From an uncultured Solirubrobacteraceae bacterium (GTDB lineage: Bacteria > Actinomycetota > Thermoleophilia > Solirubrobacterales > Solirubrobacteraceae), in contig CAWDUT010000005.1 in the NCBI GenBank assembly GCA_963805525.1, positions 59,824 through 83,823 on the forward strand: a DNA stretch of 24,000 bases, in the 5' to 3' direction. How positions within the stretch are numbered: position 1 is the first letter of the stretch; every line of letters begins with the position of its first letter. Positions 3,196 through 10,857 of the stretch are shown piece after piece. The notes beneath the pieces are model-generated. The model was not told the DNA's origin. It saw only the letters and a list, made by a program, of their open reading frames with translations, and did not search any database. The position numbers were made by a program, and so were the translations under genes.

Positions 3196-3394
3196 CTGAC
3201 CAGCCCAACCTCCACGACGACAATCGCGAGAATCCACCGCGCGGCGATCTGTTCTCCGAGGACATCAACGCACCACAGACGACGTCGCCGACGGGACCAG
3301 CCTCAAGCGATTGCCTCGCTCGCGGGCAGGCGATCAGTCAGAATCTGCGTGATTTGCAGGGATTCTATCCCCTTGCGCTCCTCGTTTCCGGCGC

Positions 3395-3436
3395 CTGAAA
3401 ATCGTGGTGTCCCCGGTTCGAGTCCGGGTCTCGCCA
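3395..3436 (+). repeat. 3' half of a tRNA-Phe(GAA)-like gene (anticodon loop to CCA-proximal end), att-like direct repeat copy 1; not an intact tRNA
   Basis: The sequence parses as CTGAAAA (anticodon loop, GAA), TCGTG, GTGTC (variable), CCCGG-TTCGAGT-CCGGG (T arm), TCTCGCC-A (acceptor 3' strand). Upstream there is no GGCGAGA acceptor 5' strand, D arm or anticodon-stem partner. It is 41/42 identical to 10816-10857. Confidence 0.75.
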
Positions 3437-3936
3437 TGCCGAGGGCCGAAATCCCGTGTGGCTACGAGATTCTCTAGTCGATGGTGCACTGGCGACTCGA
3501 ACTTCCTGCACCACGCGTGGTTGTCGTGAGGTCCGCGGTATGAGTCGGAAGCGGCGAACTCGGCTTCGCCGCCGTGATCTCGGGCGCTCGCGGCGTGTAC
3601 GACGCTCGGAGAGAAGGCCCGGCCGAACGTGCCGCAATCGCCTTTTTGTCTCCTTTTCCTTGAGGCACCTCGAGGGTTCGGACGCGCCTCCGCGCAACGG
3701 CCACCGCGCGAACTTTCGCTCGCGCGCGGCGCGCGCGATGTCCATCACGCCGGCGGACAAGTCGTTGTGGCGCCGGTTTCGGAGTGTCGCCCGGCCAGAT
3801 TGAGCGTCCGACGCCTGCCCTCTGGGTGCTGCTCGTACGCTCGGTCCTTGAGCGTGCCGGTTGGCGCTCTGGTCACGTCGGGCCGAGGACTGGCAGCGGG
3901 GCGGTCGATCGCCGGCGCGCACGCGAGGGCTGTCCG

Positions 3937-3962
3937 GGCACGGCCCGAGGTCGGGCCGTGCC
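3937..3962 (-). terminator. Perfect 11-bp GC hairpin downstream of the fasciclin gene
   Basis: GGCACGGCCCG (3937-3947), loop AGGT, CGGGCCGTGCC (3952-3962). It lies 37 nt past the fasciclin stop codon on the minus strand. No U-tract. Confidence 0.5.
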
Positions 3963-3998
3963 GGGGAATCGGACAGCGTGCAGCGCCGCCGCCGGCGG

Positions 3999-4533
3999 CT
4001 ACGGGATCAGGACGCGGTTGATGACGTGGATGACGCCGTTGGAGGCGCGCACGTCGGCGGTGACGACCTTCGAGCGGTTCACGAACACGTTCTGGTCGCG
4101 GACGCGGATCTTCACGCGCTTGCCGTTGAGCGTCTTGATCGACGAGCGCTTGACGACGCGCTTGGCGGCGAGCCGGCCTGCGGCGACGTGGTAGAGCAGC
4201 ACCGCCTTCAGCTTCGCCTTGTCCTTGCCGAGCGCCTTGAGCGTCTTCTTGGGCACCTTCTTGAAGGCCGCATCGGTGGGCGCGAAGACCGTGTACGGCC
4301 CCTTCGCGGAGAGCGTCTCGGCCAGGCCCGCCTGCTTGACGAGTGAGACCAGCGTGGTGAAGTTGCCGGCCGCGACGGCGGTCTCGACGATGTTGGGCTT
4401 GGCGGCCGCGGCGGCCGCGGCCGTGTCGGGGCGTGCGCTGGCCGGCGCTGCCGCCAGCGCCGCGGCGGCAAGTCCGGCGACGAGCCCGGCGGTGCGCGCG
4501 GCGCGCAGTGGTGGTGATGGTGCTGGTGCTCAT
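3999..4533 (-). CDS. Secreted fasciclin (FAS1) domain protein; reading frame broken by an apparent 1-nt indel about 27 nt after the ATG
   Basis: The frame ending at the stop 4001-3999 translates ..LRAARTAGLVAGLAAAALAAAPASA/RPD..KPNIVETAVAAGNFTTLVSLVKQAGLAETLSAKGPYTVFAPTDAAFKKVPKKTLKALGKDKAKLKAVLLYHVAAGRL..GVIHVINRVLIP, i.e. a signal peptide plus FAS1 domain. That frame is closed by TGA at 4532-4530 and has no ATG/GTG/TTG before 4256. The only SD-preceded start (AAGGAG-N4-ATG, ATG at 4533-4531) is 1 nt out of frame. Confidence 0.8.
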
Positions 4534-4550
4534 GCTGCTCCTTGGTGAGA

Positions 4551-4636
4551 GGGTGGGACAAACACTGAACAAGCTATGGACAGCTAAGCAGCGACTGTCC
4601 TGTCTGTCAAGTCCTTGTTCATTGTTTGTTCGGCGA
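4551..4636. promoter_or_regulatory. Candidate CarH/LitR operator plus divergent promoters: near-palindrome made of 3+3 eleven-bp-phased T-N2-ACA repeats
   Basis: ACA occurs on the top strand at 4558, 4569 and 4580. TGT (ACA on the bottom strand) occurs at 4605, 4616 and 4627. All are mirror-symmetric about 4593/4594. The 18-nt arms GGACAAACACTGAACAAG (4556-4573) and CTTGTTCATTGTTTGTTC (4614-4631) are 16/18 reverse-complementary. TTGTTC(4615-4620)-N17-TATGCT(4638-4643) would place a TSS at about the ATG at 4651 (leaderless). TTGACA lies on the minus strand at 4610-4605. Confidence 0.45.
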
Positions 4637-4650
4637 CTATGCTGCACGGC

Positions 4651-5502
4651 ATGGCAGCCGCCACGCTCCGCATCGGTGAGCTCGCGCGGCGCTCCGGCGT
4701 CAGCGCGGACCTCCTGCGCGCGTGGGAGCGCCGCTACGCGCTGCTGGAGCCGGTGCGCACCGCCGGCGGCTACCGCCTGTACTCCGCCGCCGACGAGGCG
4801 CGCGTGCGCTCGATGCAAGCCCACCTCGCACAGGGACTGTCGGCCGCCGAGGCCGCGCGACTGGTCCGCGACGCGACGGCGCCCGAGCCGCAGAACGGCG
4901 CTCCGGCGGATCTCGCCGCAGCGCTGTGGTCCGCGCTCGACAACTTCGACGACGCGGGCGCGCAAGCCGCCTTCGACCGGCTCGTGGCGACGTTCAGCCT
5001 CGAGGCCGTCGCGGAGACGGCCATCCTGCCCTATCTGCGGGCGCTCGGCGAGCGCTGGCGCGACGGCGACGCCTCCGTGGCGCAAGAGCACTTCGCCACC
5101 GGCCTGCTTCGAGCGCGGCTGCTGGGCCTGGCCCGCGGCTGGGACCGCGGCGCCGGTCCTCGCGCGCTGCTCGCCTGCCCGTCAGGCGAACACCACGACC
5201 TCGGGCTCATCATCCTCGGCCTCGCGCTACACGACCGCGGCTGGCGCGTCACGTTCCTCGGACCCGACACCCCGATCCAGACGCTCGCAGCCGCCGCCGA
5301 CCAGCTCACGCCCGACGCGGTCGTGCTCTCCTCACTCACGCGCGAACCGCTTCGCCGCGGCCGAAACCGAGATCGCGCAGATCGCCGCCTCGCGACCCGT
5401 ACTGCTCGCTGGCCCCGGCGCGGATACCGAACTGGCCGAACGCTCACGGGCCGACTGCTCGCCGGGAACCCGATCGACGCCGCCGACGAGATGTCCGCGT
5501 AG
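4651..5502 (+). CDS. carH: MerR-family HTH / cobalamin-binding light-responsive regulator (CarH/LitR type); C-terminal ~50 codons appear scrambled by two compensating frameshifts
   Basis: N-terminal MerR HTH: TLRIGELARRSGVSADLLRAWERRYALLEPVRTAGGYRLY. Wx9EH motif: W 5056-5058, EH 5086-5091. B12 motif ExHxxG: GEHHDLG at 5188-5205, followed by GWRVTFLGPDTP. From ~5345 to ~5455 the annotated frame reads GRNRDRADRRLATRTARWPRRGYRTGRTLTG, whereas the +1 frame reads domain-like AAAETEIAQIAASRPVLLAGPGADTELAERS. The start is uncertain: 4651 is favoured by the HTH spacing, and 4639 is also in frame. Confidence 0.8.
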   Translation: MAAATLRIGELARRSGVSADLLRAWERRYALLEPVRTAGGYRLYSAADEARVRSMQAHLAQGLSAAEAARLVRDATAPEPQNGAPADLAAALWSALDNFDDAGAQAAFDRLVATFSLEAVAETAILPYLRALGERWRDGDASVAQEHFATGLLRARLLGLARGWDRGAGPRALLACPSGEHHDLGLIILGLALHDRGWRVTFLGPDTPIQTLAAAADQLTPDAVVLSSLTREPLRRGRNRDRADRRLATRTARWPRRGYRTGRTLTGRLLAGNPIDAADEMSA

Positions 5503-6674: not shown

Positions 6675-7460
6675 CTATCCGCCGGCGAGCGCGCCGGCAT
6701 AGACCTGCCAGGCCAGCGCGCTCTTGGCGACGAGGCTGAGGATCAGGTAGACGCGCTCGGCGAACGCTGGGTCCGCCCAGCGGCCGCGGCCCCGGTACTG
6801 CAGCCACATGTTGACCGCAAACGTGTTGAACAGCAGGAACAGGGTGATGAAGATCGCGACGACGAAGCCAGGGACGCCGTTGCCATCGGTGGTCGAGACG
6901 ATGAGTTGGGTGGTGATCGCGATCCACGGCACGGCGCCGATGACGCACCCGTAGATGAACGGCCGCCAGTCCACCTCGTCGCGGCCGACGTTCACTCGCT
7001 CCTGCACGAGCCCGAAGAGGATCATCGCCGCGTTCGCCCCGAACAGGGCGATCAGCGCGACGAGCTCGCTGACCCCGGCGAGCATCGCGATCAGCACGAT
7101 CATCAGCGACGCGCTGAGCGAGTACTCCCACCAGCGCGCCGGATTGATCCCGCGCGCAACGTTGGTCTCGTACCAGCGGCGCGGCCGCCCGCCGCTCAGC
7201 GTGAGGTGATCGACCGCGGCAAGCAACAGGAACGCGGCGACCAGCCAGTCGATCCGCACGCTGCCGAGGCTCGCAGAACCGTAGTCGCCGGCGCCGGGCG
7301 GGCCGGTCAGGAACGACGCCGTGATCGGGAGCGAGGCGGCCGTTGCGATCGCGAGCAGGACGACCGCCTGCATGGCGTGCAACGAGCCGACGATGACGTT
7401 CAGCCGGCGCAGCCGGGAGGCCGCCGCGGCGTCGAGCCGGGCTGGCGAGGGGTCGGACAT
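6675..7460 (-). CDS. Heliorhodopsin (retinal-binding 7-TM photoreceptor with inverted topology)
   Basis: The 261-aa ORF aligns end to end with heliorhodopsin 48C12 as I recall it. Matching strings: NVIVGSLHAMQAVVLLA, TASFLTGPPG, RWWEYSLSASLMIVLIA (counterion Glu), VALIALFGANAAMILFGLVQE, GCVIGAVPWI, VPGFV..FITLFLLFNTFA, AERVYLILSLVAKSALAWQVYAG (Schiff-base Lys). Confidence 0.9.
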   Translation of the reverse strand: MSDPSPARLDAAAASRLRRLNVIVGSLHAMQAVVLLAIATAASLPITASFLTGPPGAGDYGSASLGSVRIDWLVAAFLLLAAVDHLTLSGGRPRRWYETNVARGINPARWWEYSLSASLMIVLIAMLAGVSELVALIALFGANAAMILFGLVQERVNVGRDEVDWRPFIYGCVIGAVPWIAITTQLIVSTTDGNGVPGFVVAIFITLFLLFNTFAVNMWLQYRGRGRWADPAFAERVYLILSLVAKSALAWQVYAGALAGG

Positions 7461-7513: not shown

Positions 7514-8548
7514 GTGTCGCTTGTGAGCGATCCGGCGCCGCGTCCCGTAGAGGGAGCAGTGATCACCTCCCTGCTCGACACGATTCTCGACCGCACAGTC
7601 GTCGCCGGTTACGCGAGCGCCGGATACCGGATGCGCAGCCGTGCGTGGGACGCAGACGATCTCCCGTCGATGGACGGCAAGACGGTCCTCGTCACCGGTG
7701 CGACCTCGGGGCTCGGTCTGGCGGCCGCCGAAGGGTTTGCCCGGCTCGGCGCGAGCGTCCGGCTGCTCGCGCGCAACGAGGAGCGCGGGGAGCGAGCGCG
7801 CGCGGCCGTCGTCGCGGCGACCGGCAACAGCGACGTGCGGGTGTGCCTGTGCGATGTCAGCGACATGCAGGACGTGCGGGCCTTCGCGGCGCGCTTCATC
7901 GCCGACGAGCCGCGCCTCGACGTCCTGGTCAACAACGCCGGCGTGCTGCCGCCGGAGCGAGCGGTCACCGCGGACGGCAACGAGCTCGCGCTGGCGACGA
8001 ACGTACTCGGACCGTTCCTGCTCACGAACCTGCTGATCCCCCTGCTCACGCAGAGCGCACCGGCGCGGGTCATCAACGTCTCCTCGGGCGGGATGTACAC
8101 GCAGCGGCTACATGTCGAGGACCTGCAGTCCACGGGCGAGAAGTACGACGGGCCGACGGTATACGCGCGGACCAAGCGCGCGCAGGTGATCCTGACCGAG
8201 CTGTGGGCGAAGCGGCTCGCCGGCACCGGGGTGGTCGTGCACGCGATGCACCCGGGCTGGGCGGACACTCCCGGCGTAGCGTCCTCGCTGCCGCGCTTTC
8301 ACCGGCTGACCGGACCGCTACTGCGCAGCCCCGAACAGGGGGCCGACACGATCGTCTGGCTCGGGGCGGCCGCCGAACCGGGCGAGAGTTTCGGCGGTTT
8401 CTGGCACGACCGCAGACGGCGCCCGACGCACCGCGTGCCGTGGACGAGGGAGGCGCCTGAAGATCGTGAGCGGCTCTGGCGCGAGTGCGAGCGGCTCACC
8501 GGCTGGCACGCCGTCCCGCTCCCGGCCCCGACCCACGCGCGCGTATAG
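7514..8548 (+). CDS. Short-chain dehydrogenase/reductase (SDR), DHRS12 / retinol-dehydrogenase-like subgroup with N-terminal extension
   Basis: Cofactor motif TVLVTGATSGLGLAAA, NNAG motif (LVNNAGV), catalytic S..YxxxK (VSSGG ... YARTKRA). The start may be GTG 7514 or in-frame GTG 7523. Confidence 0.9.
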   Translation: MSLVSDPAPRPVEGAVITSLLDTILDRTVVAGYASAGYRMRSRAWDADDLPSMDGKTVLVTGATSGLGLAAAEGFARLGASVRLLARNEERGERARAAVVAATGNSDVRVCLCDVSDMQDVRAFAARFIADEPRLDVLVNNAGVLPPERAVTADGNELALATNVLGPFLLTNLLIPLLTQSAPARVINVSSGGMYTQRLHVEDLQSTGEKYDGPTVYARTKRAQVILTELWAKRLAGTGVVVHAMHPGWADTPGVASSLPRFHRLTGPLLRSPEQGADTIVWLGAAAEPGESFGGFWHDRRRRPTHRVPWTREAPEDRERLWRECERLTGWHAVPLPAPTHARV

Positions 8549-8559
8549 GAGACACACCG

Positions 8560-9462
8560 GTGGCGCACTACACCGCAAGCATCAACACGCCCCGACCGCC
8601 CGCGGAGACGTTCGCGTACCTCAGCGACTTCTCCACAACCGAGGAATGGGACCCGGGCGTGGTCACGGCGAAGCGGCTTGGTGATGCTCCGATCGGTAAG
8701 GGGACGGAGTTCCGTGTCGTGGCCGATTTCCTCGGCCGCAAGGCCGCGCTCACGTACCGGATCGTCGAGTTCGAACCGGGCAGGGCCCTCACGCTGCGGG
8801 GCGAGAACGCGACCGTGGTCTCGCTTGACCGGATCACGTGCGAGCCGTCCGACGGGGGCACGCGGGTCACCTACGACGCCGACCTCGCGCTGAAGGGGCC
8901 GCTGCGGATCGCCGATCCGCTCCTCGGACTCGCTTTCGATCGCGTCGGCGACCGCGCGCTCGACGGCCTGCGCGACACGCTCGGCAGTCGCGACCCGGCA
9001 CGGCTGCCGCCGCTCTCGGGCCGCAGCCTCGACGGCCGCGACCACCACCTGCCCGACGACCTGCGCGAGCAGCACACCTTCATCATCACCGCCTTCCGGC
9101 GCGAGCAGCAGGCGCTGGTCGACGAATGGCTCCCGTGGCTCCTCGACCTCGAGGAGCGCCGCCCGGACGTCGCCGTCTACGAACTGCCGGTCCTCTCCTC
9201 CGCGTACTCGCCGGCCCGCTGGTTCATCGACGGCGGCATGGCGCGCGGCGTGGGGACTGATGCCGCGCGCGCCCGGACGATCACGGTCTACACCGACGTC
9301 GCGAAGGCCGTGCGCGAACTCGGCCTGGCCGGCACCGACACGATCGGCGTCCTGCTCGTCGACCGCTCGGGCCGCATCCGCGCCCGCGAACACGGCGGCT
9401 TCGACGACGAGAAGACGATGCGGCTCACCGCGGCGCTCCGGCGCTCGAGCGCCGACGGCTGA
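8560..9462 (+). CDS. SRPBCC (START/polyketide-cyclase-like) domain protein fused to a cysteine-less thioredoxin-like C-terminal domain
   Basis: GTG at 8560 follows TAGGAGA (8546-8552). The N-half reads AHYTASINTPRPPAETFAYLSDFSTTEEWDPGV...TYDADLALKG, typical of SRPBCC. The C-half (HTFIITAFRREQQALVDEW...IGVLLVDRSGRIRAREHGGF) resembles a redoxin/ATP10-like fold but has no CxxC. The C-half assignment is tentative. Confidence 0.85.
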   Translation: MAHYTASINTPRPPAETFAYLSDFSTTEEWDPGVVTAKRLGDAPIGKGTEFRVVADFLGRKAALTYRIVEFEPGRALTLRGENATVVSLDRITCEPSDGGTRVTYDADLALKGPLRIADPLLGLAFDRVGDRALDGLRDTLGSRDPARLPPLSGRSLDGRDHHLPDDLREQHTFIITAFRREQQALVDEWLPWLLDLEERRPDVAVYELPVLSSAYSPARWFIDGGMARGVGTDAARARTITVYTDVAKAVRELGLAGTDTIGVLLVDRSGRIRAREHGGFDDEKTMRLTAALRRSSADG

Positions 9463-10780: not shown

Positions 10781-10815
10781 GGATTTCACCGCTTGCGGCC
10801 GCGAGAACGCAACGA

Positions 10816-10857
10816 CTGGAAATCGTGGTGTCCCCGGTTCGAGTCCGGGTCTCGCCA
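10816..10857 (+). repeat. 3' half of a tRNA-Phe-like gene, att-like direct repeat copy 2 (anticodon position mutated GAA to GGA); not an intact tRNA
   Basis: It is 41/42 identical to 3395-3436. Four extra upstream nt (ACGA, 10812-10815) still pair with TCGT of the anticodon stem. It is followed by a T-rich, lower-GC flank (ctttcttttgcctgcataatgatg). No D arm is present. The short GCGAGA at 10801-10806 could pair with TCTCGC but would leave no room for a D arm. Confidence 0.75.

Follow-up and report, generated by a model that had tools for sequence, protein, structure and literature searches.

CarH is the model B12-based photoreceptor and has become a widely used optogenetic part. To our knowledge, the known CarH operators are single runs of direct repeats located before carotenoid genes. 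The sites bound by the AdoCbl tetramers of Thermus and Bacillus CarH are 11-bp direct repeats in tandem, of the form 5'-nnnnTnnACAn-3', with three repeats in Thermus and four, or three and a pseudo-repeat, in Bacillus, and these repeats overlap with the -35 or the -10 element (Perez-Castano et al. 2022, PMC9304148). The myxobacterial Pcrt carries five full or pseudo-repeats (DR/dr) over about 55 bp with a TTGACA -35 element inside a sense-strand repeat, and the CarH of Cystobacter binds as two dimers to overlapping sites (PMC9304148). A preliminary description of the locus discussed here had given the consensus as T-N2-ACA at 11-bp spacing, which matches the published nnnnTnnACAn in three or four tandem copies (PMC9304148).

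The locus belongs to the genome of an uncultured Solirubrobacteraceae bacterium (5.84 Mb, 72% GC, seven contigs), and the window, which is the whole stretch of 24,000 nucleotides that was analysed, corresponds to G000:C5:59824-83823. Two divergent genes in the window are separated by an intergenic region of 117 bp (4534-4650):

3999 to 4533, minus strand: secreted fasciclin (FAS1) gene (PF02469, E 3.4e-41), with its ATG at 4531-4533
4651 to 5502, plus strand: carH, encoding MerR HTH, B12-binding_2 and B12-binding domains (from Pfam, the translation, the alignment with TtCarH and comparison with an intact duplicate)

The fasciclin gene is preceded by AAGGAG at 4538-4543, 4 nt upstream of the ATG, and an SD sequence is absent before the carH ATG at 4651. 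The identification of the adjoining gene as carH in the preliminary description is borne out by its three domains, by two signature motifs and by homology to TtCarH. The product contains a MerR-type winged-helix domain (PF13411, E 9e-16; PF00376, E 3.8e-13), a four-helix-bundle B12-binding_2 domain (PF02607, E 4e-10) and a Rossmann-type B12-binding domain, for which the Pfam match of the window copy ends at profile position 62 of 121 because of two indels discussed below. The Wx9EH motif of CarH, which caps the adenosyl group and serves as a criterion for the CarH class, aligns as W-RDGDASVAQ-EH with W-HRGEIGVAE-EH in TtCarH, and the ExHxxG motif with the lower axial His reads GEHHDLG compared to GERHEIG. 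The recognition helix (SA..LR.WERRY) and the wing (RT.GG.RLYS) are near-identical to those of TtCarH, and residues 6-268 of the intact paralogue P0004 align with TtCarH/LitR (5C8D, 3WHP) at E 3e-41. A PduO-type adenosyltransferase gene (PF01923) is present in the genome as a source of the cofactor.

The intergenic region contains two blocks of repeats, which together span 86 bp:

4551 to 4583, plus strand: distal (fasciclin-side) array with the units gggtgggACAa (pseudo-repeat, no T), acacTgaACAa and gctaTggACAg
4584 to 4603, no strand: inter-array spacer, not conserved, containing the symmetry centre 4593/4594
4604 to 4636, minus strand: proximal (carH-side) array with the units tcgccgaACAa (pseudo-repeat), acaaTgaACAa and ggacTtgACAg

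Direct reading places ACA on the top strand at 4558-4560, 4569-4571 and 4580-4582 and on the bottom strand, as TGT of the top strand, at 4627-4629, 4616-4618 and 4605-4607. Within each set the triplets are exactly 11 bp apart, the two sets mirror each other about 4593/4594, and a T at position -3 is found in four of the six units, with the two outer units devoid of it; all of these features, as first reported for this stretch, were recovered when the sequence was read again. Out-of-phase triplets are also present (ACA at 4562; TGT at 4597, 4601 and 4623). An independent repeat search returned arms of 26 nt at 4558-4583 and 4604-4629, which are 81% complementary and 20 nt apart. Taken alone, each array consists of three tandem units in one orientation, namely two full repeats and one pseudo-repeat reduced to ACA. 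The middle unit of the distal array differs from its proximal counterpart by a single base, and the outer proximal unit, which reads cgaACA in the window, has lost a T that is kept in relatives.

The reading that we favour, and hold to be likely, is that this stretch represents two separate predicted CarH operators of three 11-bp TnnACA-type repeats each, which face each other and would jointly repress both genes in the dark and release them in the light. The resemblance to the CarH of Thermus thermophilus (PDB 5C8E) and Bacillus megaterium extends from the 11-bp direct repeats with a TnnACA core and tolerated pseudo-repeats to the protein itself, with its MerR domain, both motifs and full-length homology, as well as to carH being probably autoregulated. 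Unlike in these systems, two arrays of three repeats lie here 20 bp apart and facing each other in a single divergent region, the repeats are antisense to carH and the gene predicted to be co-regulated encodes a secreted fasciclin rather than a carotenoid protein. As the six units form two inverted blocks and not one tandem, the composite must be seen as a variant and not as the described layout. A parallel to the size of the element is the Pcrt operator of the myxobacterial CarH/CarA system, which likewise exceeds the three repeats of one tetramer, embeds a TTGACA -35, mixes full with pseudo-repeats and is plastic in design. In Pcrt, however, the units are contiguous and in a single orientation, whereas the blocks considered here are inverted and separated by a non-conserved spacer, and the targets are different. 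The facing triplets were new to the author of the preliminary description, and a literature search found no CarH operator with facing arrays.

The phased pattern is not a product of chance. When the 117 bp between the two genes were subjected to mononucleotide shuffling, a phased set of three ACA appeared on any strand at a frequency of 6.5e-4, and such sets on both strands were obtained in 0 of 200,000 shuffles. Two tandem TnnACA units at 11 bp occur 15 times on both strands of the 5.84-Mb genome, and the stricter combination of one ACA and two TnnACA units in 11-bp phase is found at five places, of which four are accounted for by the arrays here and in the second copy of a duplicated cassette that is described further below. 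An 11-bp unit matrix was built from the carH-proximal sites of 22 distinct orthologous loci only, with the consensus ACaCTnGACAa, and used to scan the genome for three phased units. The carH-side array scored 33.9 bits, the best value in the genome, and the fasciclin-side array scored 30.2 bits, with the next best site at 20.4 bits and a genome mean of -36 (sd 9); only the two arrays, in both cassette copies, exceed 22 bits. As the matrix contains proximal sites exclusively and still gives 30.2 bits for the distal array, the latter is supported independently. When the genus of the window was excluded from the matrix, both arrays scored about 20 bits, a value matched by 0 of 20,000 shuffles.

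Scanning the genome with the strict pattern and with the matrix gave no other credible site that would point to a wider regulon. No array was found at the single SQS_PSY gene (C4:470003-470773), upstream of a pair of heliorhodopsin and SDR genes or at the three other fasciclin genes of the genome, and the absence from the fasciclin paralogues points to specificity for the cassette. Weak two-unit matches at C7:603522 and C1:259065 have neighbours that are not related to light, and array matches in rpoC and 16S rRNA were dismissed as chance. The best two-unit match beyond the cassettes (19.5 bits) lies in G000:C7:603500-603560, a non-coding stretch of lower GC content 3' of a histidine-kinase gene, in which three TGTCCA motifs, 12 and 11 bp apart, adjoin a T-rich run resembling a terminator.

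Comparison with about 40 carH loci of Thermoleophilia, 39 of which are distinct and were counted under a strict rule, gives a broader picture of how such arrays are arranged. At least one array upstream of carH is present in 36 of these 39 loci, in most cases with one near the start, and the layouts under the same rule are 10 convergent, 9 direct, 15 single, 2 other and 3 without any array. In nearly all loci the proximal array takes the form TGTnnA-N5-TGTnnA(-N5-TGTnnA) on the carH strand, which corresponds to TnnACA repeats on the opposite strand, and its ACA centres are located near -45, -34 and -23 from the carH start in Thermoleophilia as a whole, alike for fasciclin, DUF378, amine oxidase/DUF1365 and SDR/SRPBCC as divergent genes. 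At a further 20-45 bp upstream, at least 21 of the 39 loci contain a distal array with two or three units, which is found in several clades of CarH and can have either orientation. In an alignment of eight genus-level relatives, 21 of 33 columns are invariant in the distal array and 19 of 33 in the proximal array, with 3 of 21 in the spacer. Conservation of the repeats upstream of orthologous carH genes, which the preliminary description had proposed as a check, is therefore evident both in the Thermoleophilia loci and in the genus alignment.

These numbers bear on the question of whether the fasciclin-side array takes part in regulation. It could be an inverted copy that is vestigial or of low affinity and plays little regulatory part, the carH-side array alone acting as the working operator for both promoters, an explanation that we consider improbable. 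It draws on the order-wide conservation of the proximal triplet, on the 15 loci with a single array, on the finding that three repeats suffice for Thermus CarH (PMC9304148), on the lower matrix score of the distal array and on the fact that the proximal array already covers both putative -35 elements. By contrast, a vestigial copy is difficult to reconcile with a distal array that is as conserved within the genus as the proximal one while the spacer between them drifts, that recurs in at least 21 loci of several clades in both orientations and that scores about 10 bits above the rest of the genome.

A second question concerns the facing orientation. Eight of eight genus relatives share the facing 3+3 layout, which is found in similar form in L047, L034/L040, L015 and L029/L031. 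In a tree of CarH proteins, for which the architecture labels were assigned by hand from the locus scans and five broken-frame and three partial loci were omitted, the convergent layout occurs in the clade of the window and in its sister L029/L031, in L034/L040, and in L015, the last of which is nested among direct loci. This scattered distribution implies that the orientation has switched more than once, and since distal arrays of both orientations are common, the facing 3+3 arrangement appears to be a lineage variant of a two-operator design. The preliminary description had proposed a near-palindromic single operator; the mirror symmetry is real, but it is one orientation variant of a proximal-plus-distal design with two arrays, in which the distance of 24-26 bp varies.

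The same observations have to be considered for the idea that both arrays form one composite symmetric operator for a single higher-order CarH assembly, either of touching tetramers or with wrapped DNA, which would require a defined orientation and spacing. The distance between the inner units is 24-26 bp within the genus, with a spacer length that varies by +/-1 bp among relatives, but convergent loci elsewhere have distances of 27, 39 and 45 bp, and in sister lineages both arrays point the same way and are separated by gaps that are not in phase. The centres of the two arrays are 47 bp or about 160 Å apart, which exceeds the span of one CarH tetramer. We regard such an assembly as highly improbable, even though the near-palindrome extends over 86 bp, the facing layout persists throughout the genus and beyond it, and one DNA-binding domain is left free in the Thermus tetramer (PMC9304148). 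The variable spacer and the free orientation in sister lineages favour two independent operators over one rigid palindromic complex.

The inverted repeat could also act as a hairpin, in RNA as an attenuator or terminator or in DNA as a cruciform, or be the site of another, dimeric regulator that binds palindromes. The 81% complementarity of the arms is what such a reading would build on. Among the eight relatives, however, the 26 arm pairs show 0 compensatory double changes and 19 pair-breaking changes, upon which an RNA or DNA hairpin was rejected, and conservation tracks the 11-bp periodic core instead of the stem. The predicted fasciclin transcript would hold only one of the arms and the carH transcript neither, and in other lineages the same repeats form direct arrays that are always found beside carH. 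Taken together, a hairpin or an unrelated palindrome-binding regulator is very improbable indeed. No Rfam family was detected in 3300-5000, the sole match being a chance miRNA hit (E 0.92), so that a riboswitch or another known RNA was discarded as well.

The candidate promoter elements are the following:

4605 to 4610, minus strand: TTGACA, putative fasciclin -35, a perfect hexamer within the inner proximal repeat
4582 to 4587, minus strand: TTAGCT, weak candidate for the fasciclin -10, 17 nt after TTGACA, non-canonical and abutting the distal array
4615 to 4620, plus strand: TTGTTC, putative carH -35 within the middle proximal repeat, invariant in the genus and inseparable from the repeat core
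4638 to 4643, plus strand: TATGCT, putative carH -10, 7 nt before the ATG and 17 nt after TTGTTC, kept in seven of eight genus relatives

A strict sigma-70 scan returned no promoter in this region, and related sequences are found in DNA soil metagenomes only, with no RNA run carrying them, which is why the promoter positions are deduced from conservation. On the carH side, a TANNNT hexamer is located 6-7 nt before the ATG across the order and is usually overlapped by the third proximal unit, which suggests that a leaderless, autoregulated carH is the rule in the order. The TATGCT of the window, 7 nt before the ATG, likewise implies a leaderless carH mRNA, and the promoter TTGTTC-N17-TATGCT with a leaderless ATG at 4651, as put forward in the preliminary description, fits this order-wide position. 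A second carH promoter with the distal TGGACA as its -35 was dismissed, there being no -10-like hexamer 16-18 nt downstream. On the divergent strand, TTGACA coincides with the inner unit in 31 of the 39 distinct loci and is followed by TANNNT 16-19 nt downstream in 17 of these 31; as this recurrence is far above what composition would give, the inner repeat probably doubles as the -35 of the divergent promoter. The earlier claim that the inner repeats cover a TTGACA applies to the right-hand inner repeat, as the left-hand one does not contain this hexamer. In the genus of the window, a T(T/G)A(G/T)CT-type hexamer (TTAGCT- or TTATCT-like) keeps the position of the fasciclin -10 but is not a canonical TANNNT, and it must be seen as weaker evidence for the fasciclin promoter.

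We infer binding, stoichiometry, promoter positions and light dependence in a model that would proceed as follows. In the dark, AdoCbl-loaded CarH tetramers would occupy the two arrays, one tetramer per array, and each would contact a single face of the helix with three DNA-binding domains, in the manner known from Thermus. At 4604-4636, the carH-side array would cover two back-to-back -35 elements, i.e. the TTGACA of the minus strand and, on the plus strand, the TTGTTC and the spacer of the leaderless carH promoter. The fasciclin-side array at 4551-4583 would cover the edge of the -10, the start site at about 4575 and the first 25 or so nucleotides of the fasciclin transcript. With both arrays occupied, both divergent genes would be off, and in the light the photolysis of AdoCbl would cause the tetramers to fall apart and both genes to be switched on. 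Occupancy of both arrays would be an extrapolation from published CarH operators, since these have no facing arrays, and cooperation between the two tetramers may occur. When three DNA-binding domains were modelled on the distal array, they took up the 11-bp periodicity with a score of 0.71 compared to 0.61 for the best shuffled DNA, a weak difference that was given no weight as evidence, the tool setting no verdict for protein-DNA complexes.

The cassette of fasciclin gene, intergenic region and carH is present twice in the genome. The segment 3999-5547, which starts exactly at the fasciclin stop and extends about 45 nt beyond that of carH, has a second copy 48 kb upstream at C5:11466-13013 (L002). 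The two copies have the same orientation, their identity over 1.55 kb is 98.3%, and their intergenic regions do not differ. The duplicate is intact, with carH at C5:12117-12965 encoding P0004. In the copy of the window, an extra G at 4494 uncouples the fasciclin ATG from the frame of the signal peptide and the FAS1 domain. In carH, one G too many at 5354 and the loss of a base near 5452 act as two compensating indels that scramble about 33 codons of the B12-binding domain; these two indels flank a 115-bp patch which holds 20 of the 22 substitutions between the copies, and nearly all substitutions fall within 5346-5461. Soil-metagenome contigs of relatives are free of all three indels, one of them (run X5) having many of the patch letters in frame, and broken carH frames also occur in several related long-read MAG loci, which makes real decay no more likely than an error of assembly or polishing. 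Should the indels be genuine, the window copy may be inactive; in either case the intact carH 48 kb upstream, with its identical operator, could supply CarH in trans.

The surroundings of the cassette in the window contain further genes. A heliorhodopsin gene (6675-7460, minus strand, PF18761, E 4e-90) is located 1.2 kb downstream of carH, and a second heliorhodopsin gene with 84% nucleotide identity (G000:C6:33751-34593) is found 2.4 kb from a fasciclin lipoprotein gene (C6:30816-31385). CarH-type repeats were absent upstream of either heliorhodopsin. Divergent from the heliorhodopsin gene of the window is a pair of SDR and SRPBCC (polyketide-cyclase-fold) genes at 7514-9462 on the plus strand, which has no array; a pair of the same type is divergent from carH in L042:835-2346, where it follows a CarH-type array. 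Finally, a 45-nt direct repeat (3392-3436 and 10813-10857, 95.6% identical) brackets a 7.4-kb segment with the cassette and the heliorhodopsin gene. It also matches G000:C2:25621-25671, and an earlier reading took the copies as 3' halves of tRNA-Phe and att-like island borders.

Across the order, the fasciclin gene is the commonest divergent partner of carH, occupying this position in 15 of 27 loci, where it either faces carH itself or follows a DUF378 gene. Elsewhere, carH is divergent from SDR and SRPBCC genes, from the gene of an HtaA-like protein, or from amine oxidase and DUF1365 genes, these last two in L030:272-2388, L035 and L069. In L039, a CMAS-type (cyclopropane-fatty-acid-synthase-like) methyltransferase gene (L039:524-1120) lies near the amine oxidase and DUF1365 genes. 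The set of amine oxidase, DUF1365 and CMAS genes belongs to photo-oxidative stress regulons in Proteobacteria.

Fasciclins have been connected with light or singlet oxygen in other bacteria. In R. sphaeroides, the fasciclin RSP_1409 is induced by singlet oxygen in an RpoE-dependent manner (PMC7074977), a fasciclin of A. brasilense is under the control of RpoE-ChrR as far as the work is cited in a later paper (Dubey 2021, cited in PMC10949492), and the fasciclin genes mpk70 and mpk83 of M. kansasii are induced by light (PMC9861118). The regulons of these three bacteria thus resemble the one predicted here in having a secreted FAS1-domain protein as an output of light or singlet oxygen. Unlike here, they are driven by ECF sigma/anti-sigma pairs or by unknown regulators, and none of the drivers is a B12 photoreceptor repressor. 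No paper linking CarH to a fasciclin was found in a literature search. The claim that a fasciclin is an unusual target consequently needs to be qualified: it is unpublished for CarH, but fasciclins are members of light or singlet-oxygen regulons in Rhodobacter, Azospirillum and Mycobacterium kansasii, and the gene is the commonest neighbour of carH in the order.

What is new at this locus, as supported by the comparisons above, would be a variant layout for an operator of known type, together with the lineage in which it occurs and a target unpublished for CarH, and not a new class of mechanism. The two-array design with a second array facing either way would widen the known plasticity of DNA recognition by CarH, and the locus and about 35 related ones provide natural sequences for testing which orientations and spacings the tetramer tolerates. 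The comparative evidence also suggests that a secreted fasciclin, with DUF378, is a recurrent light-controlled output in non-phototrophic soil Actinomycetota, and light control of a fasciclin would tie the Actinomycetota to the fasciclin members of the singlet-oxygen regulons of Proteobacteria. A more speculative proposal, which we put forward tentatively and think unlikely, is that the main ancestral output of CarH in Solirubrobacterales is the light-switched export of fasciclin as an adhesion-type protein, often together with the membrane protein DUF378, and not pigment, and that in the genus of the window this is brought about by two cooperating tetramers which clamp the back-to-back promoters by means of their spare domains or by bending of the DNA. 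If true, such a cooperative clamp of two tetramers would be an undescribed mode of CarH-DNA assembly.
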